A DNA stretch of 64,000 bases from Candidatus Latescibacterota bacterium (GTDB taxonomy: Bacteria > Latescibacterota > UBA2968 > UBA8231). The stretch covers positions 2,304,001 to 2,368,000 of the forward strand of contig CBDAOB010000005.1 of the NCBI GenBank assembly GCA_965197905.1, in the 5' to 3' direction. The notes under the pieces were generated by a model. That model was not told where the DNA came from. It saw only the letters and a program-made list of their open reading frames with translations, and did not search any database. This document shows, one piece after another, positions 11,251-56,715 of the stretch (the stretch's first letter is position 1; every line of letters begins with the position of its first letter). The position numbers and the translations under genes are program-made.

Positions 11251-11295
11251 CTCCCCCGTTTGGTTTCACCCTCAGGCGCCGCGGCAGCGACAACC

Positions 11296-11568
11296 ATGCT
11301 GCTAGTCACCTGTCCGAACTGCGGCGACCGCAACGCCACCGAGTTCCACTTCGGCGGGGAATACCATGCGCGCCCGCCCTCGGCGGAGGCCGAGCAGTGG
11401 ACCCGTTACCTCTACATGAAAAAAAATAGCGCCGAACGTCAGACCGAGTGGTGGTTCCATCGATCGGGGTGCGGCCTCTGGTTCCTCGTCGAGCGCAACA
11501 CTTCGACCAACCAGATCTTCAAGACCTATCGGTGGCAACCGAACGAAACCCAGAACGCCGATGAGTAG
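11296..11568 (+). CDS. soxD: Sarcosine oxidase delta-type subunit (MgdB-like)
   Basis: CPNCG ... EF.FGGE ... EWWFHRSGC Zn-binding pattern; overlaps the next gene. Confidence 0.9.
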   Translation: MLLVTCPNCGDRNATEFHFGGEYHARPPSAEAEQWTRYLYMKKNSAERQTEWWFHRSGCGLWFLVERNTSTNQIFKTYRWQPNETQNADE

Positions 11569-14455
11569 CAACCACGACGCCATGAGCTACAGAGCCGATC
11601 ACGCCCCAGGAGAGCGGATTGACCGCGGTCGCACCCTGCGGTTTACGTTCGACGGAGAACCACGCCACGGGCATGCCGGTGACACCATTGGCTCCGCACT
11701 GGCGGCGGCGGGGACCACCGTTCTGAGCCGCTCGTTCAAATACCACCGTCCCCGCGGCCTTCTGTGCTGCAGCGGCGCCTGTCCCAACTGCCTGGTACGC
11801 GTGGGAAAGGAACCGAACGTGCGCGCCTGCCAACGGCGGCTCGAAGAAGGCATGCAGGTCCGTTCGCAAAACGCCTGGCCCTCTCTGAAGCGGGACCTGT
11901 TGTCCTGGTTCGGCAAAGCCGGACGTTTCATGCCGGTGGGATTCTACTACAAGACCTTCATCCGACCGGCGAGCATGTGGCCGTTTTTCGAGCGCGTCCT
12001 GCGCCGCGCCGCCGGCCTGGGAATGGTGGACGTCACCTCTCTTCCCGCGAGCTTCGACAAGGAGTACGTGCACGCCGAGGTGACGGTTGTGGGAGGGGGA
12101 CCGGCGGGTTTGACCGCGGCGCTTGCCGCCGCCGATGGCGGTGCAGCGACTCTGCTGTTGGACAACCAGGACGAGCTGGGCGGCCACCTGCGATACAGTC
12201 GGCCGGGTGGATCCGCGGCAGCGGAGCTGCGCCAGCGCGTAGCGGATCACACGGGTATCCGAGTTTTCACGCGAACCGAAGCGATCGGATGGTACCTGGG
12301 AAATTGGATCGCGGCCCAGCAAGAGAACAGGTTGCTGAAGATTCGCACCAGCGCCTTCGTTCTGGCTAGCGGCGTCCACGAGAATCTCCTGCTCTTCGAC
12401 AACAACGACCTTCCGGGGGTGATGCTGGGGAGCGGCGTGCAGAGACTGCTGCACCTCTACGGCGTAGCGCCCGCAACGAGAGTGTTGGTTGTCGCCGCCA
12501 ACGAAGATGGCTGGACTGTAGCGGCCGATCTGCGTCGGGCCGGCGTCGAGATCGTTGCCGTCGCCGACGAGCGCGAGACCGCTGAATCGCCCGCAGCCGC
12601 CACCCTCAAGGCAGAGGGGGTCCGCTGTCTGTTCCGACATACAATCGTGAGAGCCCACGGTGAGAACCGCGTCACCGGCGCTCAGATCGCGCGACTTGAC
12701 GTGGAAGGCAACGTCGACTTCAACGCCGTCTCCGAGCTCGGGTGTGATTCTATCGTTCTCAGTGTCGGCTGGACCCCGGCGCTCGAGCTGCTGCACATGG
12801 CGGGGGGTGCGACCAGTTACGACGAAAGGCGCTGTGAGTTTTCTATCTCCATGCAGCCACCTGGCGTCTTCGTTGCCGGGCGCGCCAATGGCGGCCACGA
12901 CCTCGACTGGCAGATGCAGGACGGCACCTACGCCGGGCGCGCCGCAGCCGCGTTCTGCGGGGCGTCCGGGGCGCTGCTGAGCGAAGTGCCGCCAAGACCG
13001 GCTGAACCCAGACGCACCTCCCCGCGAGTGATCATCCCCGGTGGCAAGAAACGTTTCCTATGTCTCTGCGAAGATGTGACCAATCATGACCTGGAAACGT
13101 CGTTGCAGGAAGGTTATGACAGCATCGAGCTGCTGAAACGGTACAGCACGATCTCGATGGGACCGTGCCAGGGAAAGATGTGCTCTGCCAATGCGATCCA
13201 CCTTTGTGCTCGGGTCTGCGGCCGCTCCGTGGCCGAGACCGGCCGCACGACGTCGCGGCCCCCGGTGTCACCGGTGAGTCTTGGGGTGCTGGCCGGCCAG
13301 AGAATGGAGCCGGTACGCCTGGGTGCCCTCCACGATTGGCACCTCCGACACGGCGCCAAAATGATGGTGGCGGGATCGTGGCTACGACCGGAACACTACG
13401 GTGCCCCAACTGCTGAAGTCTGCTCGGTGCGGCAAGGCGTGGGTTTGATCGACGTCAGCACCCTGGGAAAATACCGGCTCACCGGACCGGGAGTGCCGCG
13501 ATTTCTCGAGCGCGTCTATGTCAATCAGTGGCGTAAGCTCGAGGTGGACCGCGTGCGTTACGGGATCATGTGCAACGACGAGGGGGTGGTGATGGACGAC
13601 GGGGTGTGCGCCCGCGTCGATGAGGCAGAGTGGTATTTGAGCACCACCTCTTCAGGCGCCATTGGCGTGGAACAGTGGCTGCAGTGGTGGATACAATCCG
13701 GATGGGGTGAAGACGGGGTGCACCTGGTGGATCTCACCGATCAGTACTCCGCGTTCAATCTTGCCGGCCCACTCTCGCGTCAGGTTCTTCAACAGCTGAC
13801 GGCGGCCGACCTGAGCAACGAGAGCCTGCCTTACATGAGCACTCGGGAGATCGCAATCGACGGCATCTCGTGCCGTCTTCTGCGCATCGGATTCACCGGC
13901 GAGCTATCCTACGAGGTTCATTGTCCTTCCGGTTTTGCCCATCATCTTTGGAATGCCATCATGGAGGCAGGGGCCGACTGCTCGATCCGGCCCTTCGGCG
14001 TCGAAGCACAACGCATCTTGCGCTTGGAGAAGGGCCACGTCATCGTGGGCCAGGACACCGACGCTATCTCGGATCCTCTTTCCGCCAATATGGCCTGGGC
14101 CGTTAAACTCAAGAAACGGGATTTTCTGGGGAAGCAGGAGCTCGTCCGCATCGCGGCAGCGGGCACCCGGCAGCTCCTGGTCGGATTCAAGATGGATCGC
14201 AGTAGTTCGACACCCGACGAAGGCATGCAGATTGTCGAGCAGACCCGCTCGGGAGACTTGAAGATTCTGGGATGGGTGACCTCCAGCAGGTTCAGCCCTA
14301 CGCTGGGAGAATCGATCGGCCTGTGCTGGCTTCCCAGGGAGCGGGCAGAGCAGGAGGGCTCCCCCTTGGAGATATATATGGACGGCACCCTGGAAGGCGC
14401 CCGCGTCTTCCACGGGCCGTTCTACGATCCCGCAGGAGAGAAACTGCGCTCATGA
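11561..14455 (+). CDS. soxA: Sarcosine oxidase alpha-type subunit (MgdC-like)
   Basis: RSFKYHRPRG, CCSGACPNC, GGGPAG, CLCEDV...GPCQGKMC, C-terminal GcvT domain (DVSTLGK, GFTGELSYE, LRLEKG). Confidence 0.92.
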   Translation: MSSNHDAMSYRADHAPGERIDRGRTLRFTFDGEPRHGHAGDTIGSALAAAGTTVLSRSFKYHRPRGLLCCSGACPNCLVRVGKEPNVRACQRRLEEGMQVRSQNAWPSLKRDLLSWFGKAGRFMPVGFYYKTFIRPASMWPFFERVLRRAAGLGMVDVTSLPASFDKEYVHAEVTVVGGGPAGLTAALAAADGGAATLLLDNQDELGGHLRYSRPGGSAAAELRQRVADHTGIRVFTRTEAIGWYLGNWIAAQQENRLLKIRTSAFVLASGVHENLLLFDNNDLPGVMLGSGVQRLLHLYGVAPATRVLVVAANEDGWTVAADLRRAGVEIVAVADERETAESPAAATLKAEGVRCLFRHTIVRAHGENRVTGAQIARLDVEGNVDFNAVSELGCDSIVLSVGWTPALELLHMAGGATSYDERRCEFSISMQPPGVFVAGRANGGHDLDWQMQDGTYAGRAAAAFCGASGALLSEVPPRPAEPRRTSPRVIIPGGKKRFLCLCEDVTNHDLETSLQEGYDSIELLKRYSTISMGPCQGKMCSANAIHLCARVCGRSVAETGRTTSRPPVSPVSLGVLAGQRMEPVRLGALHDWHLRHGAKMMVAGSWLRPEHYGAPTAEVCSVRQGVGLIDVSTLGKYRLTGPGVPRFLERVYVNQWRKLEVDRVRYGIMCNDEGVVMDDGVCARVDEAEWYLSTTSSGAIGVEQWLQWWIQSGWGEDGVHLVDLTDQYSAFNLAGPLSRQVLQQLTAADLSNESLPYMSTREIAIDGISCRLLRIGFTGELSYEVHCPSGFAHHLWNAIMEAGADCSIRPFGVEAQRILRLEKGHVIVGQDTDAISDPLSANMAWAVKLKKRDFLGKQELVRIAAAGTRQLLVGFKMDRSSSTPDEGMQIVEQTRSGDLKILGWVTSSRFSPTLGESIGLCWLPRERAEQEGSPLEIYMDGTLEGARVFHGPFYDPAGEKLRS

Positions 14456-15171
14456 ACCTTCAAGGGAGAAGCCCCGTGGAAGCGGCTGCGACCGCAAGCG
14501 GCGCACGTTTCATGGAAACCGGCGAATGGCGAATCCCCGCTTCGTTTAGCTCCGCGAAGCACGAGGCTGAAGCTGCCCGAACAATGCTGGCACTCTTCGA
14601 CTCGAGCGCCCGTGGCAAACTCGAGATACTGGGCGCGGACGCGGATGGGTTCCTGCAGGATTCGCTGGGATCCGGCCCCCTTGAGATCGGTTGTGGACAT
14701 GCGGTATCTTGGGGTCATCTCTATCGCTTGCGCCAGGATCTCTATTTCGGGACCACTCGTGGAAGTGCGACGGAAATCGTGAACGAGTTGCATGCGGCAG
14801 CACATCGCGGCCAATGGTTTGTTACGCTCACCGAAGTCACCCATGGGCGTTCCGAGCTCTGGCTCGTCGGACCCCAGAGTCGATCCATGATGGCCAAGGT
14901 TTGTGCGCTCGACCTGCAGCCTTCCGCCTTTCCCGATGGTGCAGCCGCTTTTGGAAGCGTCGCAAAAACGACCCAGCTGATCTTGCGCAAGGATGTTGCC
15001 GGCCTATTGTGTTTCGCTTTGATCGGACCCCGTTCGCTCGGCGACTATCTGTGGAAGGTTTTGTTGGAAGCGGGGGAAGAATGGCGGGTAACGCCGGCGG
15101 GAGGACACGCACTGGAGATACTCGAATCGCGTCGACAACCAAGAGGAGACAGATATTATGACCTTGAGTGA
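14452..15171 (+). CDS. soxG: Sarcosine oxidase gamma-type / GcvT-like subunit (MgdD-like)
   Basis: ATGA overlap with the soxA stop; GcvT-like segments (DSSARGK, VCALDL, PRSLGDYLWKVLLEAG). Confidence 0.8.
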   Translation: MNLQGRSPVEAAATASGARFMETGEWRIPASFSSAKHEAEAARTMLALFDSSARGKLEILGADADGFLQDSLGSGPLEIGCGHAVSWGHLYRLRQDLYFGTTRGSATEIVNELHAAAHRGQWFVTLTEVTHGRSELWLVGPQSRSMMAKVCALDLQPSAFPDGAAAFGSVAKTTQLILRKDVAGLLCFALIGPRSLGDYLWKVLLEAGEEWRVTPAGGHALEILESRRQPRGDRYYDLE

Positions 15172-16492
15172 CGTCAAGAAACTGGTGAAAGACGAAGGCA
15201 TTGAGTTTTTCCTCTGTTCGTTCGTGGAGATGGGTGGCTTACCCAAAGCCAAACTCGTACCCGCGACCCATCTGGACGACATGGCGGCAGAGGGAGCGGG
15301 GTTTGCCGGTTTTGCCACTGGCGAAATGGGTCAAGGTCCACACGATCCGGAGATGGCTGTTATTCCCGACTTTGACTCAGTGTCGGTTGTGCCGTGGCGC
15401 AAAAACATGGCCTGGGTGGCGGGAAACGCCCTGGTGGAAGGCGAGGCATTCGATTACTGTCCGCGCACGATTCTGCAGCGACAGATCGATCGGGCGAAAT
15501 CCCGCGGCTTTCGTTTCAACGTGGGGGTGGAAGCGGAATTCATGCTACTGAAGCGTGCCGAGGATGGCACTCACGTTCCCTACGATCCGCTCGATGTATT
15601 GGACAAACCGTGCTACGATCTGGTCACCCTGCACCGCAACCTCGACCTGATGACCACACTGATCGGCTACATGCAAGAACTCGGGTGGGGGCCGTACGCC
15701 AACGATCACGAGGATGCCAACTGCCAATTCGAGATCAACTGGGAGTTCTCTGACGCCATCGCGACCGCCGACCGCCACACCTTCTTCCGTTGGATGGTCA
15801 AAACCGCCGCCGAAGACCAGGGCATCCTAGCCACCTTCATGCCCAAACCGTTCAGCCACCTCACCGGTAGCGGCGCGCACTTTCACATGAGCCTATGGGA
15901 CGAGAAAAACAGTACCAATCTGTTTCTGGACGAAAGCGACGAGCAGGGTCTGTCCCAGGAAGCCTACTGGTTTATGGGCGGCTTGTTGCATCACGCCAAG
16001 GCATTGATCGCCGTAAACGGTCCGATTGTGAATAGCTACAAACGGTTGACTCGGGGTGCGCCGAGGTCGGGCGCCTCCTGGGCGCCGGTCTACATCACCT
16101 ACGGAGCTTCGAACCGGACGCAGATGATTCGCATTCCAGCTCCGGGACGCATCGAAAATCGCGCTGTTGACGGTTCCGCCAATCCGTATCTCTCGTGCGC
16201 CGCCATGTTGGCCGCCGGGTTGGACGGTATCGAAAACAAGATCGATCCAGGAACCCGCAACAGCGACAACCTCTACGAGGTGGAAGAAGAGGAACTGACG
16301 AGGCGGGGCATCGATTTCCTACCGTCGACCTTGAAGGAGGCGATCGAACATTTCGCTGCGAACGAGGTGATGAAACAGGCGTTCGGCCCCGAGTACGCGG
16401 ATTATTACGTGCAGGTGAAGCAGAATGAATGGCAGCAGTACCATCAGATCGTCGACCAATGGGAAAGGGACCGCTACTTGCCTGTCTACTAG
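15158..16492 (+). CDS. gmaS: GlnT-type glutamine synthetase family protein, probable gamma-glutamylmethylamide synthetase
   Basis: KAKLVPA, GAGFAGFA, GVEAEF, NDHEDANCQFEIN, TFMPKPF, SGASWAP, NRTQMIR; overlaps soxG by 14 nt. Confidence 0.75.
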   Translation: MTLSDVKKLVKDEGIEFFLCSFVEMGGLPKAKLVPATHLDDMAAEGAGFAGFATGEMGQGPHDPEMAVIPDFDSVSVVPWRKNMAWVAGNALVEGEAFDYCPRTILQRQIDRAKSRGFRFNVGVEAEFMLLKRAEDGTHVPYDPLDVLDKPCYDLVTLHRNLDLMTTLIGYMQELGWGPYANDHEDANCQFEINWEFSDAIATADRHTFFRWMVKTAAEDQGILATFMPKPFSHLTGSGAHFHMSLWDEKNSTNLFLDESDEQGLSQEAYWFMGGLLHHAKALIAVNGPIVNSYKRLTRGAPRSGASWAPVYITYGASNRTQMIRIPAPGRIENRAVDGSANPYLSCAAMLAAGLDGIENKIDPGTRNSDNLYEVEEEELTRRGIDFLPSTLKEAIEHFAANEVMKQAFGPEYADYYVQVKQNEWQQYHQIVDQWERDRYLPVY

Positions 16493-30743: not shown

Positions 30744-31751
30744 ATGAATCTCGAACGCAAGGGAATGTCCTCCTACCTTCAGCGAAAGAAGCTGATCAAA
30801 AGAGGAACGCCGCTAAATATTCGCCCCATTGGGGACGGGCAGAAGAATCGCGTTTTTCATGTGTCCGCTCACGGGGACGAGTGGATCATCAAGCAGTCCC
30901 TGTCCCGCGTCCAGCACATCAAGGAACGCTGGTGGGTCGATCGCAAACGCGTCTTCACCGAAAGCAGCTGCATCGAGATCTTGAATCAGATCGTGCCCCC
31001 GGACGTAATCCCTCAGGTGGTTCTGGAGGACCGCACCGACTTCATCATCATCACCAGTCCGCCACCCAAAGACGCAGTCTGGTGGGAACGCGAGCTTCAA
31101 AGAGGAAAAATAGACCTGCAGATTGCCGTGCAGTGTGGCGAGCTGCTCGCTACGGTACACAATGCCACCTACGAACGGCCGGACCTGAAGACTAACTTCA
31201 GGGATACCAAGATCTTCGAGCAACTGCGCATCGGTCCGTACTACGACGCGATAGCCGCAGCTTTCCCGGATCTTCGAAAAATTATCGATGCCCAGGCCCA
31301 GGAGCTGCTTAAACGAAAGGTCACGCTGGTGTTGGCCGACTTGCGGCCGAGAAATGTGTGGATCGACACAGGGCAGGTCTATCTCGTCGACTTCGCCACT
31401 GCCCATTTCGGCAACCCTTCGTTTGACCTTGCCTTCTACTCAGCGGACCTGTGCCTCAGGGCCATGCTCAACAGTCTGCAGAAAGCGGCCTATCTGGAAG
31501 CGATAAATGTTTTTTGGAATGGCTACTTGAGAATCGCCGAATACCCAGGAAAGCAGGACGTCGAGAAAACCGCGGTGCGCGATCTGGGTTGTCTCTTGCT
31601 CAGCACCACAGACGGTCGGCTGCCGGTAGAGGGCATGCCACCGGAAATCATCGATCTTTCCCGACGCATTGCACAGAGCCTGCTCTTTACAGAGTTGGAA
31701 CGCATCGAGGACATCACCGAGTTCATCAACCGAACGCTCATCGACGGTTGA
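30744..31751 (+). CDS. APH / methylthioribose-kinase-like phosphotransferase
   Basis: IGDGQKNRV, IIKQS, FEQLRIGPYY, LADLRPRN, LVDF, AHFGNPSFD. Confidence 0.72.
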   Translation: MNLERKGMSSYLQRKKLIKRGTPLNIRPIGDGQKNRVFHVSAHGDEWIIKQSLSRVQHIKERWWVDRKRVFTESSCIEILNQIVPPDVIPQVVLEDRTDFIIITSPPPKDAVWWERELQRGKIDLQIAVQCGELLATVHNATYERPDLKTNFRDTKIFEQLRIGPYYDAIAAAFPDLRKIIDAQAQELLKRKVTLVLADLRPRNVWIDTGQVYLVDFATAHFGNPSFDLAFYSADLCLRAMLNSLQKAAYLEAINVFWNGYLRIAEYPGKQDVEKTAVRDLGCLLLSTTDGRLPVEGMPPEIIDLSRRIAQSLLFTELERIEDITEFINRTLIDG

Positions 31752-31754
31752 TCT

Positions 31755-32492
31755 TCAGCCTGGCAGGCCTCTGTCCAGGTGACTCCGTAAATCTAAGCTG
31801 CTGGAAATAATGTGGGTTTTCATGGCTTGCCTGCACGCTCCTTCTTCGCCGTGCTCTAGGGCGCTCAAGATCTCGCCATGTTCGGCCAGGGATTTTCGCG
31901 CCCTTCCGATCTTTTCGGGAGGTGTGGGTTCCGCCAGGCTTCCCTTGATCCACTCCTGCAGATAGGTGCGAATCATGGTGAGCAGGTTGTTGAGTATTGG
32001 ATTTTGCGTCGCCCGCGCAATTAACAGGTGAAACCGAAGGTCATTATCCAGGAAGCGGTCGTCAGCATCGACAGAGTCTTCCATCGCCGTAAGGGCAGCC
32101 CCAATCTCGTGCACGTCGGCAGGTGTTGCCCGCTGCGCCGCCAGTGACGCCGTTTCTGTTTCAAGCATAAGCCGGGTCTCGACCAGATCCTGAACCGTTT
32201 TGCGATCGAGCAACAGGCCCCATTGCATGCTCTTTTCCAGGTACTTGGAGCTGTTGTCGCATACAAACGTTCCCTCTCCCACCCTTCCATCCAGGATTCC
32301 CATGACGGACAGTGAACGCAGAGCTTCCCGAACAGAGGTCCTTCCGACCCCGAACATGGTACAGAGTTCGCGCTCGGAAGGCAGACGTTCCCCCGGCTTC
32401 AGCACGTCCCGGGAGATGAGATCGATGATCTGATCGACGATCTTATCGCTGAGCGACGCCTTAGAAACGGGTCGAAGACCTTCTATGCTCAT
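31755..32492 (-). CDS. FadR/GntR family transcriptional regulator
   Basis: GERLPSERELCTMFGVGRTSVREAL winged HTH; FCD domain (DLRFHLLIARATQN, EH, H). Confidence 0.93.
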   Translation of the reverse strand: MSIEGLRPVSKASLSDKIVDQIIDLISRDVLKPGERLPSERELCTMFGVGRTSVREALRSLSVMGILDGRVGEGTFVCDNSSKYLEKSMQWGLLLDRKTVQDLVETRLMLETETASLAAQRATPADVHEIGAALTAMEDSVDADDRFLDNDLRFHLLIARATQNPILNNLLTMIRTYLQEWIKGSLAEPTPPEKIGRARKSLAEHGEILSALEHGEEGACRQAMKTHIISSSLDLRSHLDRGLPG

Positions 32493-32585
32493 GTGCGAGG
32501 CAGAAACCGCGTTGAAGCAAACCAAGCACAAGCAACATGCGAAGAGCGCATGGCCCGCGCGCGGTTAAGCTTTTTAGATTTTTCC

Positions 32586-32647
32586 TTTACAATGGGCTGA
32601 ATCAGCCGTATTGTATTATAGGCTAATGGTCAGATCATCAGTCACCA
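32586..32647 (+). promoter_or_regulatory. Promoter and FadR-subfamily operator candidate for the methyltransferase cassette
   Basis: TTTACA (32586-91), 17 nt, TATTGT (32609-14); TGGTCAGATCA (32627-37) is one mismatch from TGGT-N3-ACCA; an imperfect palindrome TACAAT..GGCTGA/TCAGCC..ATTGTA overlaps the promoter. Confidence 0.5.
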
Positions 32648-32699
32648 AGTATAGAATAATCGGCGATCGGTTGTCAAGCGGAATGAACGGGAGACAGGC

Positions 32700-33335
32700 A
32701 TGGCCAAGATGATCGACATCGGGCATAGGGTTGAACTGGTGCCCATGGACACCCATTTCCATGAGATCACGCTGGCCCTCTATCAGCAGATCGTGGACGG
32801 GCAACCCCAGTACCTGGTGCATTCCTACAGTTCGATCGCAGATACGGCCCAGAGGCTCGAGGCGGTAACGGCATCGATGAGGGTGCTGGGCGGCATGGAG
32901 ACGGCAACGGAGAAGCGGTTGCGATTCCCCTGCGGTAATGAACATCTGCTCGGGGTCCGGCGCCTGTTCCTGGAGTCGTGTAAGGTTCCACCTGACGCAG
33001 AACCGAAGCAACGTCCCCTCCAGATCTTCGACAAGAAATCGAACGTAGAGGTTACCGTATCGAAACTGGGCAACGGCCGTTATGGCGTAACCGCCGACAC
33101 CGCGGACGACCAGGAGGCCGTGGACAAGCGACTCAACGCGATCGCCGGCGGTCTCTTGAAGCTGGGCCAGTTGGCCGCCATCGACACTCTGGAGGTCGCC
33201 TTCGAATGCGGCCAGGACCACGATGCGCTGCTTGGGCTGCTGCTGGTCCGCGCGCCAAATGTGCGCGCCGCGGTTCGGGAGCAGGAGCAAGTCGCCGCTC
33301 GTGGCGTCTTGGCAGCCCCGAGCCAACAGGAATAA
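32700..33335 (+). CDS. Hypothetical protein with an internal duplication and two FxCGxxH motifs
   Basis: GGAG RBS; first gene of the cassette; repeats offset by 92 aa (C78/C170, H82/H174). Confidence 0.8.
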   Translation: MAKMIDIGHRVELVPMDTHFHEITLALYQQIVDGQPQYLVHSYSSIADTAQRLEAVTASMRVLGGMETATEKRLRFPCGNEHLLGVRRLFLESCKVPPDAEPKQRPLQIFDKKSNVEVTVSKLGNGRYGVTADTADDQEAVDKRLNAIAGGLLKLGQLAAIDTLEVAFECGQDHDALLGLLLVRAPNVRAAVREQEQVAARGVLAAPSQQE

Positions 33336-33345
33336 GGAGTTACCA

Positions 33346-34395
33346 ATGACGAGCGAAGCAAAGACTCCAATGAGCAGTCGGGAGCGCGTGTTGGCCGCCC
33401 TGAAACGCGAGCCCGTCGACCGCACACCCTGCTGCAACCCCACCTCCGTGGCAACGGTAGAATTGATGGATCTGGTCGATGCCCCTTTTCCACGGGCCAA
33501 TCGCGAACCCGAGCTAATGGCCCGCCTGGCCGCGACCGGTTACACGGAGCTCGGATTTGACAGCATCATGCCGGTATTCTCGATCATCCAGGAGTCGTCA
33601 GCGCTGGGTTGCAAGATCCAGTGGGAGCAGAAGGACAACTGGCCGACCGTGAAGATGCGCGAGCCGATCTGGGAAGAGCCGGACGACATCGAGATACCGA
33701 ACGACTTCCTGACCCACCAGGACACCTCCTGTGTTCTCGAAGCGATCAAGATATTGAGGAAGGAATACGGCGACGAGGTTGCCATCATCGGAAAAACCAT
33801 GGGGCCGTGGTCGCTGGGATATCACTGTTTCGGGGTCGAGCCGTTCCTGCTCATGTCTCTGGACGATCCGGATCGCACCAAACTCTGCCTTGACCGCATG
33901 AAAAAAGCGACCATCGACTTTGGCAGAGCCCAGATCGAGGCCGGAGCCGACGCGCTCTGCCTCCCCGATCACGCGACAGGAGATCTGGTGAGTGGCGAGT
34001 ATTACGATCGATACTTGCGCGAATTACACATCGAATTCTCTCAGGAGATTCCGATTCCGCTGATTCTGCACATATGCGGTCGGACCGTGGACCGGATGGA
34101 CTACATCGCCCAGACCGGCATGGCCGCGTTTCACTACGATTCAAAGAACCAACCTGGAGAGTCGATGGATGTGGTGAAGGACAGGATCTCGCTGGTGGGC
34201 AACATCAATAATCCGGAGACCCTTTTTTCCAAAGGACCTGAAGAGGTAACCGCCGAGGTTGTAAAGAATTTAGACGCCGGCGTACAGCTGGTCGGACCCG
34301 AGTGCGCCATTCCACTGCAAACCGCGATCGAGAACCTGAAAGCAATACCCGGTGCGGTGAAAGATTGGCATCGAGACCATCCGGCAAATAATTGA
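33346..34395 (+). CDS. MtaA/CmuA family methyltransferase (URO-D fold)
   Basis: MSSRERVLAAL...PVDRTP start, GPWSLG, AQIEAGAD, LHICG (HxC) and GPEC distal Cys; AAGGAG RBS. Confidence 0.88.
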   Translation: MTSEAKTPMSSRERVLAALKREPVDRTPCCNPTSVATVELMDLVDAPFPRANREPELMARLAATGYTELGFDSIMPVFSIIQESSALGCKIQWEQKDNWPTVKMREPIWEEPDDIEIPNDFLTHQDTSCVLEAIKILRKEYGDEVAIIGKTMGPWSLGYHCFGVEPFLLMSLDDPDRTKLCLDRMKKATIDFGRAQIEAGADALCLPDHATGDLVSGEYYDRYLRELHIEFSQEIPIPLILHICGRTVDRMDYIAQTGMAAFHYDSKNQPGESMDVVKDRISLVGNINNPETLFSKGPEEVTAEVVKNLDAGVQLVGPECAIPLQTAIENLKAIPGAVKDWHRDHPANN

Positions 34396-34452
34396 CATGT
34401 CAGGGACGCCGCGCGTTGACGCTCGTCCTGCACGAAAGAAGGTTGAGGACCA

Positions 34453-35220
34453 ATGGCAGAGCTGAAGGATATCGAGAATCAGTTCATCCGCGATGAGATA
34501 GAAGAGTTCTTAGAGCGCCCCGACGAGATCGAACGGGTGACCAATCTGTTTGCCGAATCCCGGGCCGAGATGCAGGAAATCTCTGCCGCCCTGATCGAAG
34601 GTGAAAACGTCGTTGTCGACGAACTCACTCGCGCCGCCCTCGACAACGGTATCGAAGCATTGGAGGTCATGGATTACGGCCTTATAGCGGGCATGGGCAT
34701 TGTCGGTATAAAGTTCAGGGAAAACTTCATCTTTGTGCCCGAGGTGCTGGCCTGCGCCCGCGCGATGAAGGCGGGCATGGCGCACATCGAGCCGATCCTG
34801 TCCGCCTCCGGCGTTGAACCGGAAGGCACCGTGGTCATGGGAACGGTCAAAGGAGACCTTCACGACATCGGTAAGAATCTTTGCATCATGATGCTCCGCG
34901 GCTCCGGCTTCGTCGTGCACGACCTTGGGGTGGACACCTCCGACGACGAGTTTCTCGAAGCGGTGGAAGAGCACGGCGCCCCGCTTATGGGTATGTCAGC
35001 CCTGCTCACCACCACCATGCCGAACATGGGCAAAACGATCGAAGCCTTCATCGACGAGGACGTTCGCGACGACGTCAAGATCATGGTCGGGGGCGCGCCG
35101 GTCACGCAGGAGTTTGCCGATGATATGGGCGCCGACGGATATGGTAAGGACGCCGTTGCGTGTGTGGAGCTGGCCAAGAAACTCATCGGCGAACACAAGT
35201 CGGAGCACGCCAGTATCTGA
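34453..35220 (+). CDS. Corrinoid (B12-binding) protein, MtaC/MttC-like
   Basis: Cap domain (GLIAGMGIVG, FVPEVL); GDLHDIGKN (DxHxxG), MSALLTTT, VGGAPVT, GADGY. Confidence 0.93.
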   Translation: MAELKDIENQFIRDEIEEFLERPDEIERVTNLFAESRAEMQEISAALIEGENVVVDELTRAALDNGIEALEVMDYGLIAGMGIVGIKFRENFIFVPEVLACARAMKAGMAHIEPILSASGVEPEGTVVMGTVKGDLHDIGKNLCIMMLRGSGFVVHDLGVDTSDDEFLEAVEEHGAPLMGMSALLTTTMPNMGKTIEAFIDEDVRDDVKIMVGGAPVTQEFADDMGADGYGKDAVACVELAKKLIGEHKSEHASI

Positions 35221-35317
35221 TCGGCGCGGAGGGCGAGCATCGAAACCCCCGATATGCTTCTCACCGCTGTATCCATATATCCCCAACACCCCTTGCGATA
35301 GCTGCGACCGACTCGAT

Positions 35318-37219
35318 ATGACCAAGGTTGACAAGGAAGCTTACAAGAACAGCCTCGACAAGCTGACCGAGGTATTGACCGGGGTCGCGCGGCACGCCGA
35401 CGAGCAATCTACCTACCGCTGTCCCTACAAGAATCGCCACGACGAATGCACGGCGAAAATCGGATGTCGCAATCAGCGCAAACCCAAGACTGAAGGGGGA
35501 CTGCTGATGTGCGGCGGAGACGACAAGCTGGACTACAGGACTGCCTGGGAATCGGATCCAGATTCGCATCCCATGGCCAGAGAGCCTGGGGCCGGCCACG
35601 TTGTCCACGACGGTGTCAGTCAGGAAATGGCGGTAGGCAAGACCCTGTTCGACTACGCCGACGACCTGGCGATGCAGGTTCCCACCTCTTGCGGCAGGAC
35701 CGGTCACTGTCACGAATGCGTGGTGGAAGTGAAACAGGGCCACGAAGCATTGGGTGCGAAGACGGAAGAGGAATCGTTCCTGCGTGGAGACTACCGCCTG
35801 GCCTGCCAAGCGGTGGTGGAGAATGTGGATCAGGACGTGGAATTTGCTCCCCTGCGACGAACGCCCAAGATCCTGACCGCGACGCAGGAGAAGACCCTTG
35901 AGTTAGATCCTGTTTACAAGCGCAAGGGTCACGCGGTCTTTCGAGGAGACGAGGAGGTCGACCGGTTTCGCGGCCATCTCTACGGCCTCGCCATCGACCT
36001 GGGAACGACCACCGTCGTCCTCGAGCTGATTGACCTGGAGACGGGCGACAGCGTGCAGATGCGCTCCTTCGAGAACCCCCAGCGATTCGGGGGCAGCGAT
36101 ATCATGAACCGCATCTCGTATGACGGCGAGTTTCCCGGCGAATTGCGCCGAGCGGTGGTGAAAGCGCTCAATCACGAAATCAACGAGCTCTGCTCCGAGC
36201 TTGGCTTTGTTCGGCAGGAGATCTACGAAGTCGTGGTCGCCGGAAACTCGACGATGCGCGACCTCATCTTCAAGCTCGACGTCCAAGGCATCGGGCAAAA
36301 GCCGTACAAGTCGGTGATTGAGAACGAATTCACTGATGGCCTCAGGACAACCACGGCTCTGGTGGAGAAAACTCGCCGCCTCGGTCTGCGCGCAAACCCG
36401 AAGGCGACGATATACAGCTTGCCGCTGATAGCCAGTCACGTTGGCGCCGACGTCGCAGCCGATCTGATCGCCGTGGAGATGGGCAAGACCCAGAAAACGG
36501 TGATGCTGGTGGACGTGGGCACCAACACCGAAGTCGTAGTGGCGCACCAGGGTCGCCTGATGGCCGCGTCCTGCCCCGCGGGTCCCGCCTTCGAAGGGGG
36601 AGAAATCCAGTACGGCATGCCGGGTCACGAGGGGGCCATCGAATCGATCCGACTGGTGAACGGCAGCTACGACTACAGCACCATCGGCCATCTGCCCGCG
36701 GAAGGAATCTGTGGCTCCGGACTCATCGACTTGCTGGCCGAGCTTCGCAGGCACGACCGCATGACCCCGAAGGGAGTTTTCGCCGATCGCCAGTACGAGC
36801 TGTCGATCGTTCCCGAGCGCGGCATCACCTTTTCCCGCCAGGACGCCAGCAATCTCGCCCAGGCCAAAGCCGCCAACTACTGTGGACAGTACATCGTACT
36901 GCGCGCCATGGGAATCGGTCCCGCAGATCTGGACAAACTCTACCTCGCCGGCGGATTCGCCAACTATGTCGACGTCGAGAACGCCGTCGACATTGGTTTT
37001 CTGGCTCCGGCGAACCTGGACAAGATCGTCAAGGTGGGCAACGCATCGGTTCAGGGCGCGCGCGAGGCCTTGCTTTCGCGCCGGAAACGCTCCGAGATTG
37101 AATCGTTGGTGAAGGATATTCAACACGTGGAATTGGAAACCACAACCGACTTCTTCGACGTTTTTGTGGAGGGCTGTCAGTTCAAACCGATGCCGACGGA
37201 TCTTAGCTCTCAGACCTGA
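35318..37219 (+). CDS. ASKHA-family reductive activator of corrinoid proteins (RACo/AcsV/DUF4445-type) with [2Fe-2S] domain and N-terminal Cys4 extension
   Basis: SCGRTGHCHEC...LACQ; DLGTTT, FGGSDIMNRI, GNSTM, DVGTNTE, AGPAFEG, GICGSG, LAGGF. Confidence 0.88.
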   Translation: MTKVDKEAYKNSLDKLTEVLTGVARHADEQSTYRCPYKNRHDECTAKIGCRNQRKPKTEGGLLMCGGDDKLDYRTAWESDPDSHPMAREPGAGHVVHDGVSQEMAVGKTLFDYADDLAMQVPTSCGRTGHCHECVVEVKQGHEALGAKTEEESFLRGDYRLACQAVVENVDQDVEFAPLRRTPKILTATQEKTLELDPVYKRKGHAVFRGDEEVDRFRGHLYGLAIDLGTTTVVLELIDLETGDSVQMRSFENPQRFGGSDIMNRISYDGEFPGELRRAVVKALNHEINELCSELGFVRQEIYEVVVAGNSTMRDLIFKLDVQGIGQKPYKSVIENEFTDGLRTTTALVEKTRRLGLRANPKATIYSLPLIASHVGADVAADLIAVEMGKTQKTVMLVDVGTNTEVVVAHQGRLMAASCPAGPAFEGGEIQYGMPGHEGAIESIRLVNGSYDYSTIGHLPAEGICGSGLIDLLAELRRHDRMTPKGVFADRQYELSIVPERGITFSRQDASNLAQAKAANYCGQYIVLRAMGIGPADLDKLYLAGGFANYVDVENAVDIGFLAPANLDKIVKVGNASVQGAREALLSRRKRSEIESLVKDIQHVELETTTDFFDVFVEGCQFKPMPTDLSSQT

Positions 37220-37234
37220 TTCGTACCCGACCCG

Positions 37235-38830
37235 ATGCCTTCGCCCGAAAACAAGCAAACCCGAGTCAGCCTGCGTCATCTGCTGCAAGAAACAGATACC
37301 TTCGCAACCTGCGTGGAACTGGTTACCACCCGCGGAACCATCGCCGAGCGCAGCGGACAGAAGATCCTGGAATTGGCCCGCGCTTTAGCCGACAATCCGG
37401 AGATTCACGGACTCAGCATTACCGACAACCCGGGTGGCAACGCGATGATCGGGACCGATGTCCTGGGCCACGATCTCGCATCCCGTGGCCAGGAGGTGGT
37501 CATCCATCTTTCCTGCAAGGACTTCAACCGCAACGGACTGCTAAGCCGGGCCTGGCAGTTGGCCAGCGAGGGATTCAACAACATCCTCGCCCTTTCCGGG
37601 GATTACCCGATCGCCGGCTACGAGGGCGCGGCCAGTCCCGTTTTCGACATCGATTCGGTCGCGTTGCTCGAGATCCTCAGCTCCATGAATCGGGGTTTGG
37701 AGACCGTGGGCCGTACAGGTAAGACGAGCCGGCTGAAGAAGACGGAGTTCCTTCTCGGCGCCGTAGTGAACAATCACAAGGTGCTCGAGTCGGAGGTGAT
37801 GCCACAGTATTTCAAACTGGCCAGGAAAATCGCCTGTGGAGCCGAATTTATTATCAACCAGATCGGCTACGACGCACGCAAGCAGGATGAACTGCTCAAG
37901 TACATGGTCAGAGAAGGGCTTTCGGTACCGGTCATCGGCAATGTCTACGTGCTGAACGGAGCCGCTGCCCGCGTGTTCAATGCCAACCGCATTCCGGGTG
38001 TCGTCGTCAGCGACGAGCTGCTTTCCGTAGCGGATAGACAGGCCAGCGCGGAAGACAAAGGCAAAGGGTTTTTCATCGAGCTGGCGGCGAAACAATGTGC
38101 GATCCACCGCGGCCTGGGATATCGCGGCGTCTACATAGGCGGCAACCTCGAGTACGAGGACTATGAGGGCATTCTAGAATTGGAAAAGGGATTTGGCGCC
38201 GACGACTGGAAGCAGTTTGCGACGGAGATACAGTTCAGCAGACCTGGTGAATTCTATTTCTTCGAGGCGGACCACGAGTCCGGTCTTAGCTCGACGGAGC
38301 TGAACCGGGAATATGCAGCCTCCAAGACCGCTCGCGGGCAGCGTCAGGACCGTGCCAACTTGGGTCTGGGGTATAAGATCAACCGTGCCGTCCATCACCT
38401 GTTGTTCGAAAAGGACAGTATCGGTTTCTCGCTGGCCAGCAAGCTCTACGGAAGATTGGACGACTCGAAGTTCAAGGGCGCCGCACATTCGTTGGAACAC
38501 GCAGCGAAGATCGCAGCCTTCGATTGTCGCGATTGTGGCGATTGCTCTCTTCCCGACATCGCCTATCTCTGCCCCGAATCGCAGTGCGTAAAGAATCAGC
38601 GCAACGGTCCCTGCGGAGGAACCAGAGGCGGTCAGTGCGAGATTGGAGAAAAAGAATGTATCTGGTCCAGAGCCTATAAGCGCCTCAAGGCATATGGCGA
38701 GGAGGAAGAGATGCTGAACCGGCCGGTTGTGTTCAAGGACGGTGCGCTCAAAGGAACGAGCGCGTGGGCGAATACCTTTCTGCAGCGGGACCACCATGCA
38801 AAAAAAGGAAGAAACGGGAGCAACACATGA
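37235..38830 (+). CDS. metF: Methylenetetrahydrofolate reductase with fused C-terminal MetV-like Cys-rich domain
   Basis: ITDNPGG, HLSCKDFNR, LALSGD, FDIDSV, FIINQ; C-terminal CRDCGDC...CP..QC.KNQRNGPCGG...CE...CIW. Confidence 0.85.
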   Translation: MPSPENKQTRVSLRHLLQETDTFATCVELVTTRGTIAERSGQKILELARALADNPEIHGLSITDNPGGNAMIGTDVLGHDLASRGQEVVIHLSCKDFNRNGLLSRAWQLASEGFNNILALSGDYPIAGYEGAASPVFDIDSVALLEILSSMNRGLETVGRTGKTSRLKKTEFLLGAVVNNHKVLESEVMPQYFKLARKIACGAEFIINQIGYDARKQDELLKYMVREGLSVPVIGNVYVLNGAAARVFNANRIPGVVVSDELLSVADRQASAEDKGKGFFIELAAKQCAIHRGLGYRGVYIGGNLEYEDYEGILELEKGFGADDWKQFATEIQFSRPGEFYFFEADHESGLSSTELNREYAASKTARGQRQDRANLGLGYKINRAVHHLLFEKDSIGFSLASKLYGRLDDSKFKGAAHSLEHAAKIAAFDCRDCGDCSLPDIAYLCPESQCVKNQRNGPCGGTRGGQCEIGEKECIWSRAYKRLKAYGEEEEMLNRPVVFKDGALKGTSAWANTFLQRDHHAKKGRNGSNT

Positions 38831-39915
38831 AGATTGATAGCAAGGGAATGGACTTCGTCATCGTCGGCGAGAACATTCACACCACTCGCGTCGTGCTCCG
38901 CAAAGGCAAGCTCGTAGTAGACGATCCCTCCGGCACGGAATCGGTGCGTTTTTACGACACGGGGAAGAAACGTCGCTATCTCCCCATACCCGAGAAGACC
39001 AAAACTACACAGGACTATGAAGAGGGCCGGATCAAGCATGTGAAAATTGCCGTGGAAGCGGCGATGGCCGGCGAGGAAGTGGGTCTCCTCTACTTGGGTC
39101 GCATGGTGCAACGGCAAGTCGAAGCGAAGGCCGATTTCCTCGACTTGAACGTCGACGAGATCGCGCTCAAGCTGGACCATCAAAAGGAAGCAATGCAGTG
39201 GTTGAGCAACGCCGTCATGGAGATGACGGACACCGCTCTTTCCATAGATTCCTCCAACGCGGAGATTATCGAGGTCGGGCTCGAAGCATGCGCGAAGAGT
39301 GGGCGCAAGAACATGCTCAACTCCGCCTCACTGGAACGCAGAGACGCGCTCGACCTGGCCAAAAGGTATGAGTGTGCCGTCGTCGTCACCGCCGCCGGCG
39401 CTTCGGGCATGCCTCAGAACGCGGAGGAGCGTATCGATCACGCCACCCAAATGGTAGACGCGGCGCTGGAAAAGGGGATACCGGCCGCGGACATCTTCGT
39501 CGATCCTCTGGTCTTTCCTATCTCGGTGAACATGGAGTTCGGACATCATTGTCTCGATGCAATTCGCTCACTGCGCCAGAGATACGGTTCCGAGATCCAC
39601 ATAACCGGAGGATTCAGCAATGTCTCCTTCGGCATCCCCTGCCGGCGACTCGTCAACGATGTTTTTTTGAATTTGGTTGAAGAGGCAGGGGCCGACAGCG
39701 GCATCATCGATCCAGTCGCAAGCGACCTGAACGAAGTGTTCACCATGGAAAAGGAGGACAGTTCCTACAAGCTGGCCGAGGATATGCTGTTGGGAAGGGA
39801 CGAGCATTGCAAGAACTTTTTGACAGCGTATCGAAAGGGCGAGCTCGCCGTTTTAGTCGGGGGCAGACCCCGCGAGCGGATCGATTTGCGACCTGGCGCA
39901 AAGGAGTACCGTTGA
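38827..39915 (+). CDS. Pterin-binding methyltransferase (AcsE / MetH folate-domain type)
   Basis: IVGENIH, FLDLNVD, LSIDSS, MLNS, IFVDPLVFP, GGFSNVSFG, SGIIDP; ATGA overlap with metF. Confidence 0.85.
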   Translation: MKIDSKGMDFVIVGENIHTTRVVLRKGKLVVDDPSGTESVRFYDTGKKRRYLPIPEKTKTTQDYEEGRIKHVKIAVEAAMAGEEVGLLYLGRMVQRQVEAKADFLDLNVDEIALKLDHQKEAMQWLSNAVMEMTDTALSIDSSNAEIIEVGLEACAKSGRKNMLNSASLERRDALDLAKRYECAVVVTAAGASGMPQNAEERIDHATQMVDAALEKGIPAADIFVDPLVFPISVNMEFGHHCLDAIRSLRQRYGSEIHITGGFSNVSFGIPCRRLVNDVFLNLVEEAGADSGIIDPVASDLNEVFTMEKEDSSYKLAEDMLLGRDEHCKNFLTAYRKGELAVLVGGRPRERIDLRPGAKEYR

Positions 39916-39916
39916 C

Positions 39917-40177
39917 ATGGCTGAATACCAGATCCTGTACTGGCGCGACATTCCTGCGCAACTGAAGGCGTTCGAGGGCAAGAAGCCGATCTCGCGCCCG
40001 TTGTCCGACCGCTTTCAGGTGGAGATCGACCGTGTTGCCATGGAGGATGGCCTCTTCGGCACCGACGAATACCTCGACCAGTGGCAATGGTCGGAGAAAC
40101 AGGAGCGCGAGGGAAGCGCCGAAGAGGTACTGGATGCCCTCTCGGCCGAGTTGGAAGCGAAGTACGACCAGTTCTGA
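39917..40177 (+). CDS. Small 'Virulence factor' (PF13769-like) protein associated with corrinoid methyltransferase clusters
   Basis: [30 protein letters not shown] pattern. Confidence 0.75.
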
Positions 40178-42078
40178 TGTTTGACACCCAGGCTACATAC
40201 GAGGTAATCGTGGTCGGAGGCGGTCATGCGGGCGTCGAGGCGGCTCTCGCCGCCAGCCGCATGGGTGCGAAAACGTTGCTGCTCACCATGAATCTGGACA
40301 CCATCGGGCAGATGTCGTGCAACCCGGCCATCGGCGGAATCGGCAAAGGCCACATGGTGAAAGAGATCGATGCCTTAGGCGGCCAGATGGCGGTCAACAT
40401 CGATCGCACCGGTATCCAGTTTCGACGGCTGAACACCAGCCGTGGTCCGGCGGTCCGTGCCTCCCGCGCCCAGGCAGACAAAAAAGCCTACCAGTTCGAA
40501 CTGAAGTTCGAATGCGAGAAGCAGGACCACCTGGATATCCGCCAGGGCATGATGGAGGACCTGTTCGTCGAACGTGGTCGTGTCCTCGGTGTTGGTCTGA
40601 AGGGTGGCGGTCGATTCGGGGCCTCTTCGGTTGTGCTCACCACCGGAACCTTTTTGCGCGGCAAGATCTACGTGGGCGACGTGACTCATCGCGCCGGTCG
40701 CGCCGGCGAGGAACCGGCCGATCGAGCCTCCGAGGGGCTGGCGGGACTTGGATTCGAATTGGGCCGGCTGAAAACGGGCACGCCGCCGCGGGTGAACGGA
40801 CGCACTATCGATTTCGACGCCACCCAACCTCAGCCCGGCGACGAGCCGCCGCGGTCTTTTTCCTATCAAACCGAGAAGATCGAACAAGCTCAAGTCCCCT
40901 GCTGGATAACCTATACCAACCCGACTACCCATCGCCTGATCGAGGAGAACCTCGAACGATCGGCGATGTACAGCGGCTTGATAGAAGGGATCGGACCGCG
41001 CTATTGTCCGTCCATAGAAGACAAAGTGGTCAAATTCAGGGACCGGGAAAGGCATCAGATCTTCATCGAGCCAGAAGGTCGCCGAACCCTGGAGCATTAC
41101 ATCAACGGACTCTCCATGAGCCTACCGGAAGAGGTGCAGAACCAGGTAGTGCACACCATCCCCGGCCTTGAACGGGCCCAGGTCATGCGACCGGCCTACG
41201 CGGTAGAATACGATTACGCCATCCCCACCCAGCTCTACCCGCACCTGGAAACCAAACTCGTCGGCGGCCTCTTCTTTGCCGGACAGATCAACGGCACGAC
41301 CGGGTACGAAGAAGCGGCTGCCCAGGGTCTTATGGCGGGCATCAACGCCGTGCTGAAGAGTCGCACCGAAGAGCCGTTCGTCCTGCAGCGCTCTGAAGCC
41401 TACATCGGAGTACTGGTGGACGACCTGGTGACCAAGGGCACGCAGGAACCCTACCGAATCTTTACGTCGCGGGCAGAATACCGGCTTTTGCTGCGCGAGG
41501 ACAATGCCGATTACCGCCTCATGGAGATGGGACGCCGGCTCGGTCTGATCGGCGACCGTATCTACCAGCGCTATCAGAGCAAGCGACGGCAAGTTGAGAC
41601 CGAGCTCGAGCGACTGAACCAACAGCGGGTCGGTCTGGACGAGAAGATTCAGGAAACCCTGCGGGCATGCGGGTCGACGCCTCTGAAGGAACCGGCGCGT
41701 CTGGCGGATCTGCTGCGACGGCCCGAGATCGGCTATCGGCAGATAACATTGCTGGCGCCCCCCGACCAACCGTTGACGATGGACGCCGCGGAGCACGTGG
41801 AGGCTACGATCAAATACGAGTCGTACATCAGAAGGCAGGTCGATCAGGCGGAGAAACTCAAGCGACTGGAGGAGATGCGCATCCCCAATGGATTCGACTA
41901 TTCCCGAGAGACCGTCAACCTGTCGGCGGAAGCCAGGCAGAAGCTTGCTGCCGTGCAGCCCCGGACCCTCGGACAGGCATCGCGTATCTCCGGTGTGTCG
42001 CCGGCCGACCTGTCAGCCTTGATGGTTCTGCTGCACGCCCGCTCCCAATCCGCCGACAACAGCACCAACGCCGCCTGA
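40177..42078 (+). CDS. mnmG: tRNA uridine-5-carboxymethylaminomethyl synthesis enzyme MnmG (GidA)
   Basis: [66 protein letters not shown] overlap with the previous stop. Confidence 0.97.
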
Positions 42079-55788: not shown

Positions 55789-56715
55789 TCAGCTGGATTC
55801 TGTCTGAACCGTTTCCCAACGGTGGTGCTTGTCAGCGGGCGATTCTGCCTCTAGAGCCTCGACCCACATCCGCGACCATTCCTGGTGATCGGACAGCACC
55901 GATGCCGGATTGGACCGGCTGCGCACCACGAAATCCGGATAAATGGTGCGGCCGGTAGATGTGCCCGTTTGCTGGTAGCGCAGATCCATGCTCCAGCGAA
56001 TGCCGTTGGAGTTGTTGGGGGTGGAGCGGTGGGGAATATTCTTGTGAATCAACACCACACCTCCCTTTTCTATCGGCAGGTCTACCGGTTCTGTGTCGGG
56101 CATTTCGTCTTCACGAATCCGTGTGCCGACCCCGGGGACAATCTGATGATTCAGCAGTCTCCCCTCGTGCACGCGCGGGATGATCTGCATACAGCCGTTC
56201 TCGCGGGTCGCTTTGGTTAACGGAATCCAAACAGTGAGGATGAAGTGTGGATCCGCGTCGTCCATGGTTACGCCGGCATCCTGGTGCCAGGCTGCCACGT
56301 GCGACCCACCTCCGGTGGTTCGAAACAGGCGACTGGGCAACTTCGCCCTCAAGTGTTGGATCGGGCTGCAGATGATCTCCGGACCCACCAGCCCCTCCAC
56401 CAGATCCATAAGGTTTTCGTTACGTAGAAAATCGAAGGTGTGCCGGCCCCGGGCGCGGTACAGGTCGAATAGGTCGTTGGACTGGGCGGCAAGGTCCAGA
56501 TTCTCCTCACACATTCGCGCCAAGCGCGTTTCGAAAGGCTCGTCCTCATACAACGAAGGGATCATACCTTGTTCTAACCACGCCTCCGCCAGGACTCCGG
56601 TATACTCCTCGTACTCGTGGATGATCGGATCCAGGTCGGAGTCGTTGAGGGCGTTTTCGACGACCAGGTATCCCTCTTCTTCGAATCGATCAATCTGCGA
56701 AACGGTTAGCTGCAT
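55789..56715 (-). CDS. Phytanoyl-CoA dioxygenase family Fe(II)/2-oxoglutarate dioxygenase
   Basis: EEGYLVV, WHQD (HxD), NGCM, PHRS, RWSMDLRY. Confidence 0.9.
   Translation of the reverse strand: MQLTVSQIDRFEEEGYLVVENALNDSDLDPIIHEYEEYTGVLAEAWLEQGMIPSLYEDEPFETRLARMCEENLDLAAQSNDLFDLYRARGRHTFDFLRNENLMDLVEGLVGPEIICSPIQHLRAKLPSRLFRTTGGGSHVAAWHQDAGVTMDDADPHFILTVWIPLTKATRENGCMQIIPRVHEGRLLNHQIVPGVGTRIREDEMPDTEPVDLPIEKGGVVLIHKNIPHRSTPNNSNGIRWSMDLRYQQTGTSTGRTIYPDFVVRSRSNPASVLSDHQEWSRMWVEALEAESPADKHHRWETVQTESS

Follow-up and report, generated by a model that had tools for sequence, protein, structure and literature searches.

A conserved corrinoid methyl-transfer cassette probably linked to methionine synthesis in Candidatus Latescibacterota

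A 64,000-nucleotide stretch of a Candidatus Latescibacterota genome (assembly GCA_965197905.1, contig CBDAOB010000005.1; hereafter the window) carries a regulated corrinoid methyl-transfer cassette at positions 31755..40177. Our analysis suggests that this cassette, together with a homocysteine methyltransferase (HMT) encoded on another contig, is a split B12-dependent methionine synthase, and that an MtaA-like methyltransferase (MT) and its companion protein U1 add a folate-free input of methyl groups from a compound, probably a small methyl thioether. We put the probability of this reading at roughly 0.55. The link of the cassette to methionine synthesis is the firmer part and is very probable. 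The cassette consists of the following features (window coordinates):

31755..32492, minus strand: FadR-subfamily GntR regulator (GntR + FCD); ATG at 32492, frame open to TTG at 32531
32586-32614, plus strand: weaker promoter-like site, 9/12 consensus (consensus match only)
32624..32640, no strand assigned: predicted palindromic FadR operator, core TGGTC(A/T)GA(C/T)CA, between two divergent promoter-like sites
32648..32677, minus strand: sigma70-like promoter of fadR, 11/12 consensus (consensus match only)
32700..33335, plus strand: U1, 211 amino acids (aa), assigned to no named family; built of two similar alpha/beta halves with one FxCGxxH motif apiece
33346..34395, plus strand: MT, MtaA-like zinc corrinoid methyltransferase (TIGR01463, URO-D; His242, Cys244, Cys320; clade motif K96-D-N-W99, His209)
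34453..35220, plus strand: corrinoid protein (CP), MtgC-like (B12-binding_2 + B12-binding; DxHxxG as DLHDIG)
35318..35563, plus strand: U2, four-cysteine module (C35, C44, C50, C65), an N-terminal fusion to RACo; no Pfam match
35318..37219, plus strand: RACo/RamA-like ATP-dependent corrinoid reactivator with [2Fe-2S] domain (Fer2 + Raco_middle + RACo_C_ter)
37235..38830, plus strand: MetF-MetV fusion (MetFV; MTHFR + PF12225, eight-Cys C-terminal domain)
38827..39915, plus strand: pterin-binding protein (PTB), an MtgD/AcsE-like methyl-tetrahydrofolate (CH3-H4F):corrinoid methyltransferase (PF00809)
39917..40177, plus strand: PF13769 small protein (69.5 bits, cut-off 25)

The eight open reading frames (ORFs) lie where the original prediction, made from the letters of the window, had placed them, with gaps of exactly 10, 57, 97, 15, -4 and 1 nt. 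Profile searches of Pfam and NCBIfam bore out its family calls for every protein but U1, which matched neither collection, and the two FxCGxxH motifs that it had seen in U1 read FPCGNEH and FECGQDH. Three parts had been missed: U2, the FadR operator and the HMT partner on another contig.

The host genome is 6.69 Mb in size with a completeness of 91%, and absences in it are read at that completeness. Its HMT orthologue (PF02574) lies at G000:C4:1229035-1230030, is 57–63% identical to the HMTs found inside related cassettes, keeps MetH-type motifs and has ahcY and an ArsR-SAM regulator as divergently oriented neighbours. Searches of this genome for a long B12-binding MetH frame or a two-domain MetE came up empty, MetFV is its only match to PF02219 (MTHFR), and RACo is the sole copy found. 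Two COX1 genes indicate, better than the PhyH dioxygenase at 55792-56715 some 15 kb off on which the prediction had relied, that the host respires aerobically. Because fused MetH is missing, the only MTHFR sits in the cassette and cytochrome oxidase is present, we read MetFV, PTB, CP, RACo and HMT as a split methionine synthase of the Phaeobacter/Ruegeria type, whose Ruegeria counterpart is the MtgCDE core. The separate modules of such an enzyme are all there: PF02310/PF02607 and PF00809 in the cassette, PF02574 on contig C4, and RACo as the reactivator. The same genome also encodes a 597-aa fusion of a homocysteine methyltransferase domain with a class I SAM methyltransferase (G000:C5:801237-803030; L090:6238-8031).

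The split methionine synthase of Phaeobacter inhibens and Ruegeria pomeroyi (MtgBCDE with MetF2 and RamA; PMC5764234, PMC12478193) likewise uses stand-alone corrinoid, pterin and homocysteine proteins. It also has a RamA-like activator, a MetF beside the pterin protein and an HMT that is often unlinked, and it occurs in aerobic hosts mostly without MetH. In the cassette, however, the substrate-side enzyme is MtaA-like instead of MttB/MtgB, U1 and U2 are present, and MetF is fused to MetV; furthermore, many cassette genomes do without the folate arm, and the rest of the cassette there coexists with a fused MetH. The original prediction had named a one-to-one match to a split methionine synthase as an outcome that would speak against a new system. 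Five parts do map onto that enzyme, and the MtaA-like MT and U1 are extra. Its description of the cassette as self-contained does not hold here, with the HMT partner on another contig, although 22 of 80 related loci have it inside the cassette. The expected lack of the usual MT1 family MttB was confirmed: PF06253 (MttB/MtgB), and with it an MtgBCD glycine betaine demethylase, has no match in the host genome, and the control search was positive in M. acetivorans. DUF1638 is not among the cassette genes, the only part of the genome searched for it.

To see which parts belong together, we compared related loci, namely the best 80 of 509 confirmed stretches, with MTs 76–97% identical to that of the window and drawn from several phyla; a genome scan puts the matching stretches in the species collection at an estimated 920 or so. 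The 80 records are titled Latescibacterota, Poribacteria, Acidobacteriota, Gemmatimonadota, Verrucomicrobiota, Planctomycetota, Lentisphaeria, Acidimicrobiia and Rhodospirillaceae, and the nearest locus (MT 97% identical) is a record titled Candidatus Latescibacterota. Gene order is kept far beyond chance. U1 accompanies MT in all 80 loci, followed in frequency by CP (52), RACo (48), FadR (40), MetFV (37), PTB (36) and the PF13769 protein (32). HMT lies inside the cassette in 22, which is 22 of the 52 with CP (a wrong-frame match in L003 is left out). One planctomycete cassette with HMT has MsrAB (methionine sulfoxide reductase) directly upstream of U1 (L017:7799-9130).

Two genome samples separate a stable core from a variable arm. 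The first is a class survey of 105 well-assembled genomes at least 90% complete, 101 of which carry MT as a single copy. PTB occurs in 66 of the 105, 56 without and 10 with a MetH-like frame. The 35 of 101 MT genomes without PTB all keep HMT, within 5 kb of MT in 33, and 34 of them have a MetH-like frame. MetFV tracks PTB, being found in 28 of 31 tested genomes with PTB and in none of 26 without, and a single genus holds both PTB states and a broken PTB (G192/197/199, G191/194, G200). The second sample comprises the 33 genomes behind chosen loci (33 of the 80, long contigs favoured). A CP orthologue is present in all 33 and PTB in 14; all 19 without PTB have a long MetH-like frame, and their HMT is an orthologue in 15, a divergent protein within the cassette in two and an unlinked divergent protein in two. 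Among Poribacteria, 7 of 7 fetched PTB-less loci read CP-RACo-HMT, with U1-MT elsewhere. Of 17 loci from a divergent marine metagenome lineage, 10 place a different HMT subfamily next to a divergent U1, 16 have MT downstream, and none has PTB or MetFV.

The folate arm is therefore a dispensable part, and the stable core is U1, MT, CP, RACo and HMT. By its gene content, the system is a corrinoid hub served by as many as three methyltransferases. Since the presence of the arm varies with MetH whereas MT and HMT are retained together, the conserved job appears to be a relay between a compound and homocysteine. These counts leave standing the predicted regulated corrinoid methyl-transfer system, with its FadR control and family calls, and do not support the complete route from a methylated compound through tetrahydrofolate (H4F) to CH2-H4F as its defining function. 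They also deprive the PF13769 protein of its role as a special part: it is a dispensable accessory of stand-alone corrinoid systems, present in 78 and absent from 27 of the 105 class genomes and found also in an ordinary MttB-type corrinoid operon (L103).

MT scores 255.9 bits against TIGR01463 (cut-off 235.4) and matches the MtaA structure 4ay7, a UroD-type barrel (E 2e-53, TM 0.91, rmsd 1.7). It falls below the equivalog cut-offs for both MtaA (245 < 400) and MtbA (205 < 600). All 38 orthologues compared retain the zinc ligands His242, Cys244 and Cys320. With 23% identity to CmuA of pCMU01 (E 4e-9), the enzyme does not belong to a cmu locus, another known system against which the prediction had asked to be checked. 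In a midpoint-rooted tree that leaves out two short rows, the U1-linked enzymes group in a single clade (26 rows, support 100/99), and three natural MT-CP fusions (P0270-P0272) argue that MT serves this corrinoid protein. A stand-alone MT subfamily at 41–49% identity falls outside that clade, with U1 absent in 6 of 6 genomes. The idea that the family is corrinoid-independent was dropped, as 13 of 14 genomes with this subfamily have a stand-alone corrinoid protein. One Acidimicrobiia genome has a paralogous cassette (L101:12842-15742, L102) in which MT is 43% identical, the third zinc Cys is Gly and no U1 is adjacent; it adjoins a phosphotriesterase-family gene, and the same genome has an MttB-type operon with an MttB-MTHFR frame (L103).

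T28, Q29, R70, L75, Q94 and A201 are named as pocket residues of MtaA (PMC13618148). Placed on chain 4ay7 (offset nine), they correspond to T33, S34, M75, I80, W99 and P207 of MT, and none of 34 full-length rows has Arg at position 75. This lack of conservation argues against coenzyme M as the substrate, given that R70 of MtaA presumably binds the sulfonate. The case is qualified by an invariant Lys96 that could bind an anion. Methyl-CoM and chloromethane were both lowered as candidate substrates, given the differing pocket residues and the 23% identity to CmuA.

MT resembles the Methanosarcina enzymes MtaA/MtbA, MtsA, MtsD/F/H and MtpA (10.1101/548461) in its UroD-type barrel, its His-x-Cys...Cys zinc site, its cognate corrinoid protein and the occasional MT-corrinoid fusion, MtsA and MtpA being likened by description and not by sequence. 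Unlike those systems, the cassette has homocysteine or folate as the methyl outlet, an aerobic bacterial host and the partner U1. The cmu (CmuA/CmuB) and mec systems share a TIGR01463 methyltransferase, a corrinoid domain and a nearby MetF or RACo. The second methyltransferase of the cassette is PF00809, however, in contrast to the MtrH-type MecF, and a homocysteine module belongs to its core. A histidine kinase with response regulator and a ten-gene order also mark that system; the cassette has FadR and neither of these.

U1 has 468 homologues in 277 clusters at 50% identity, and U1 and U2, neither of which has a Pfam family, agree with the prediction of undescribed accessory proteins. The structure model of U1 (pLDDT 88) consists of two similar halves. 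Fold searches gave no clear match (Foldseek reached E 0.12 at best; the top VIA match, with Z 7.1 and rmsd 3.1 over 89 residues, is within background) and the ESM Atlas gave no usable one; this lack of a fold match does not show that U1 is a new fold. Conservation of the Cys/His motifs is at least 90% among 130 close members, and some distant ones have lost them, so that metal binding is not certain; the divergent proteins P0243 and P0254 lack Cys78/Cys170. U1 was also found in four of four further genomes with a 66–75% identical MT, even where unlinked. Judged by co-occurrence, U1 is likely a required partner of MT. Three runs of a U1-MT complex prediction gave 0.01, 0.80 and 0.00 and were used neither way. 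The U2 module, here the first 82 residues of RACo, is joined to RACo in 32 of the 73 loci with a match and encoded as a small ORF of its own in the other 41.

The regulator gene is divergent from U1 in 40 of the 80 loci, and the predicted operator is seen upstream of U1 in 37 of these 40 (27 matched a strict pattern and 10 the matrix). Scored with a matrix derived from other genomes, the window site ranks first in the whole host genome (21.0 bits; next 18.2); the 11-base core alone is not significant in the window, being matched in 14 of 100 shuffles. The same scan of the host genome returned no convincing second regulon member. FadR would repress both directions from this one predicted operator until an effector is present.

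In the mechanism that we propose, RACo, perhaps with U2, would use ATP to reduce Co(II) to Co(I). MT, likely requiring U1, would bind the sulfur of the donor at its His-Cys-Cys zinc site and methylate Co(I)-CP, much as MtsA and MtpA do, and HMT would then methylate homocysteine. Where fused MetH is missing, MetFV would reduce CH2-H4F and PTB would load the same corrinoid, so that methionine would be made by the ordinary route. The PTB/MetFV arm may also run backwards, spilling surplus methyl groups into folate. What the data show directly is the gene content, the co-occurrence of the parts, the zinc ligands, the MT-CP fusions and the conservation of the operator. We infer both the substrate and the direction of transfer: the flow from a thioether to methionine follows the analogy with MtsA and MtpA, and MtaA-family enzymes act on thiols and thioethers (10.1101/548461).

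Several observations weigh against this reading. The neighbourhoods and the operator scan contain no transporter, catabolic gene or second operator that points to a substrate, and TIGR01463 includes halomethane enzymes, as the UroD superfamily includes O-demethylases. Thioether-to-thiol methyl transfer is near equilibrium, and therefore gene content cannot fix its direction. The host HMT lies outside the operon and lacks the operator, which is what one would expect of a catabolic folate route. Five of the 101 MT genomes have PTB and no HMT orthologue, and two Acidobacteria (G027, G028) combine PTB and MetH without one. The host genome also holds 16 PF01717 core-MetE-like matches in frames of at most 494 aa; the expansion is unusual, and a further methionine synthase could be among these frames. 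Finally, MetH was scored as long frames (708-1490 aa) matched by domain queries and without a MetH model, and 20 of the 35 PTB-less genomes belong to one genus (8 genera and 3 families altogether), so that they are not independent.

The alternative that survives best, although we consider it unlikely, is that flow runs the other way: MT would be an MT2-type acceptor enzyme, and CH3-H4F through PTB, or methionine through HMT running backwards, would serve to methylate a thiol, sulfide or U1 cysteine for detoxification or biosynthesis. MtaA, the closest solved relative, is an acceptor-side enzyme, 140 of 168 phylum genomes have a single copy of MT, as they would of a housekeeping gene, and U1 has the conserved Cys78 and Cys170. 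MtpA is reported to be much faster towards thiol methylation (10.1101/548461). Against this, the only linked donor in 35 genomes would be methionine via HMT, and the divergent U1 proteins named above lack those cysteines. Transfer from methionine to a corrinoid via HMT is an unusual direction.

Somewhat less probable still is a mainly catabolic role, in which methyl groups would pass from the donor through corrinoid to H4F and be oxidized to CH2-H4F and formate, as by MtgBCD/MetF2 in Ruegeria. Here the operon includes PTB and MetFV but not HMT, control by FadR would fit an inducible route, the host genome has Fhs, and a two-way MtgD has precedent in the Ruegeria work (PMC12478193). Ten genomes also keep PTB despite MetH, and the five genomes with PTB and no HMT orthologue fit the same idea. 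However, the arm on which this route depends is what the class survey finds missing, PTB in 35 of 101 MT genomes and MetFV in all 26 PTB-less genomes tested, and U1-MT-CP-RACo-HMT persists there; where PTB does occur, it tracks the absence of MetH (56 of 66). The same relay into methionine fed by a non-sulfur donor (O-methyl sugar or aromatic, N-methyl compound or methyl halide) is improbable, for although the family and superfamily include CmuA, MecE, CdmB and O-demethylases, and Q29, R70 and Q94 of MtaA have become Ser, Met and Trp beside a new invariant His209, MT stands far closer to MtaA than to CmuA and keeps its His-Cys-Cys zinc site intact, while CdmB has no zinc.

The surroundings of the cassette vary between lineages. 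Flanking 2-hydroxyacid dehydrogenases and short-chain dehydrogenases/reductases are only 28–43% alike between distant lineages, and Ldh_2 and PhyH occur only in close kin, so they offer no substrate clue. lipA and a kinase (8 of 80 loci each) and mnmG (4 of 80) are local context. In the window, the kinase converging on fadR (30744-31751) weakly matches methylthioribose kinase (TIGR01767, 58.8 bits; cut-off 275), and the start of mnmG/gidA (40177-42078) overlaps the PF13769 stop codon, and the two genes may share a transcript. A sarcosine-oxidase-like operon followed by a glutamine-synthetase-like gene lies at 10012-16489; we take these genes to resemble the N-methylglutamate pathway, which could supply CH2-H4F. 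Elsewhere in the genome, a second UroD-family protein (27% identical to MT, no Cys ligands) is paired with a second corrinoid protein (G000:C4:1430930-1432854; L089:8931-10855). The pair ends an operon of 2-oxoacid dehydrogenase E1/E2-like, succinyl-CoA synthetase-like, citrate-synthase-family and PrpD genes, with a similar pair in L104; this operon has no RACo of its own and therefore probably uses that of the cassette.

We found no published description of the cassette in a search that reached few subscription papers; these proteins may appear in the genome tables of PMC12478193 or in the UroD tree data of PMC13222342. New here are the counts that mark the folate arm as dispensable and HMT as part of the core, the operator and the pocket mapping. 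Taken together, the cassette is real and widespread and would explain methionine synthesis in genomes without MetH, and its retention points to a methyl donor important enough for the relay to be kept alongside MetH. The five-gene core with its FadR operator is small and open to direct testing, and both U1 and U2 are targets for structure determination. A bolder proposal, which we hold tentatively and at well below even odds, is that methylthioether chemistry of the methanogen type operates in aerobic bacteria from the sea, sponges, fresh water and soil, spanning at least eight phyla. In it, a U1-MT-corrinoid-U2/RACo-HMT relay would carry methyl groups from methanethiol, dimethyl sulfide or methylmercaptopropionate (MMPA) to methionine without folate or S-adenosylmethionine, with U1 as a methyltransferase subunit of new fold. 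If true, the relay would be an unrecognised sink for methylated sulfur.

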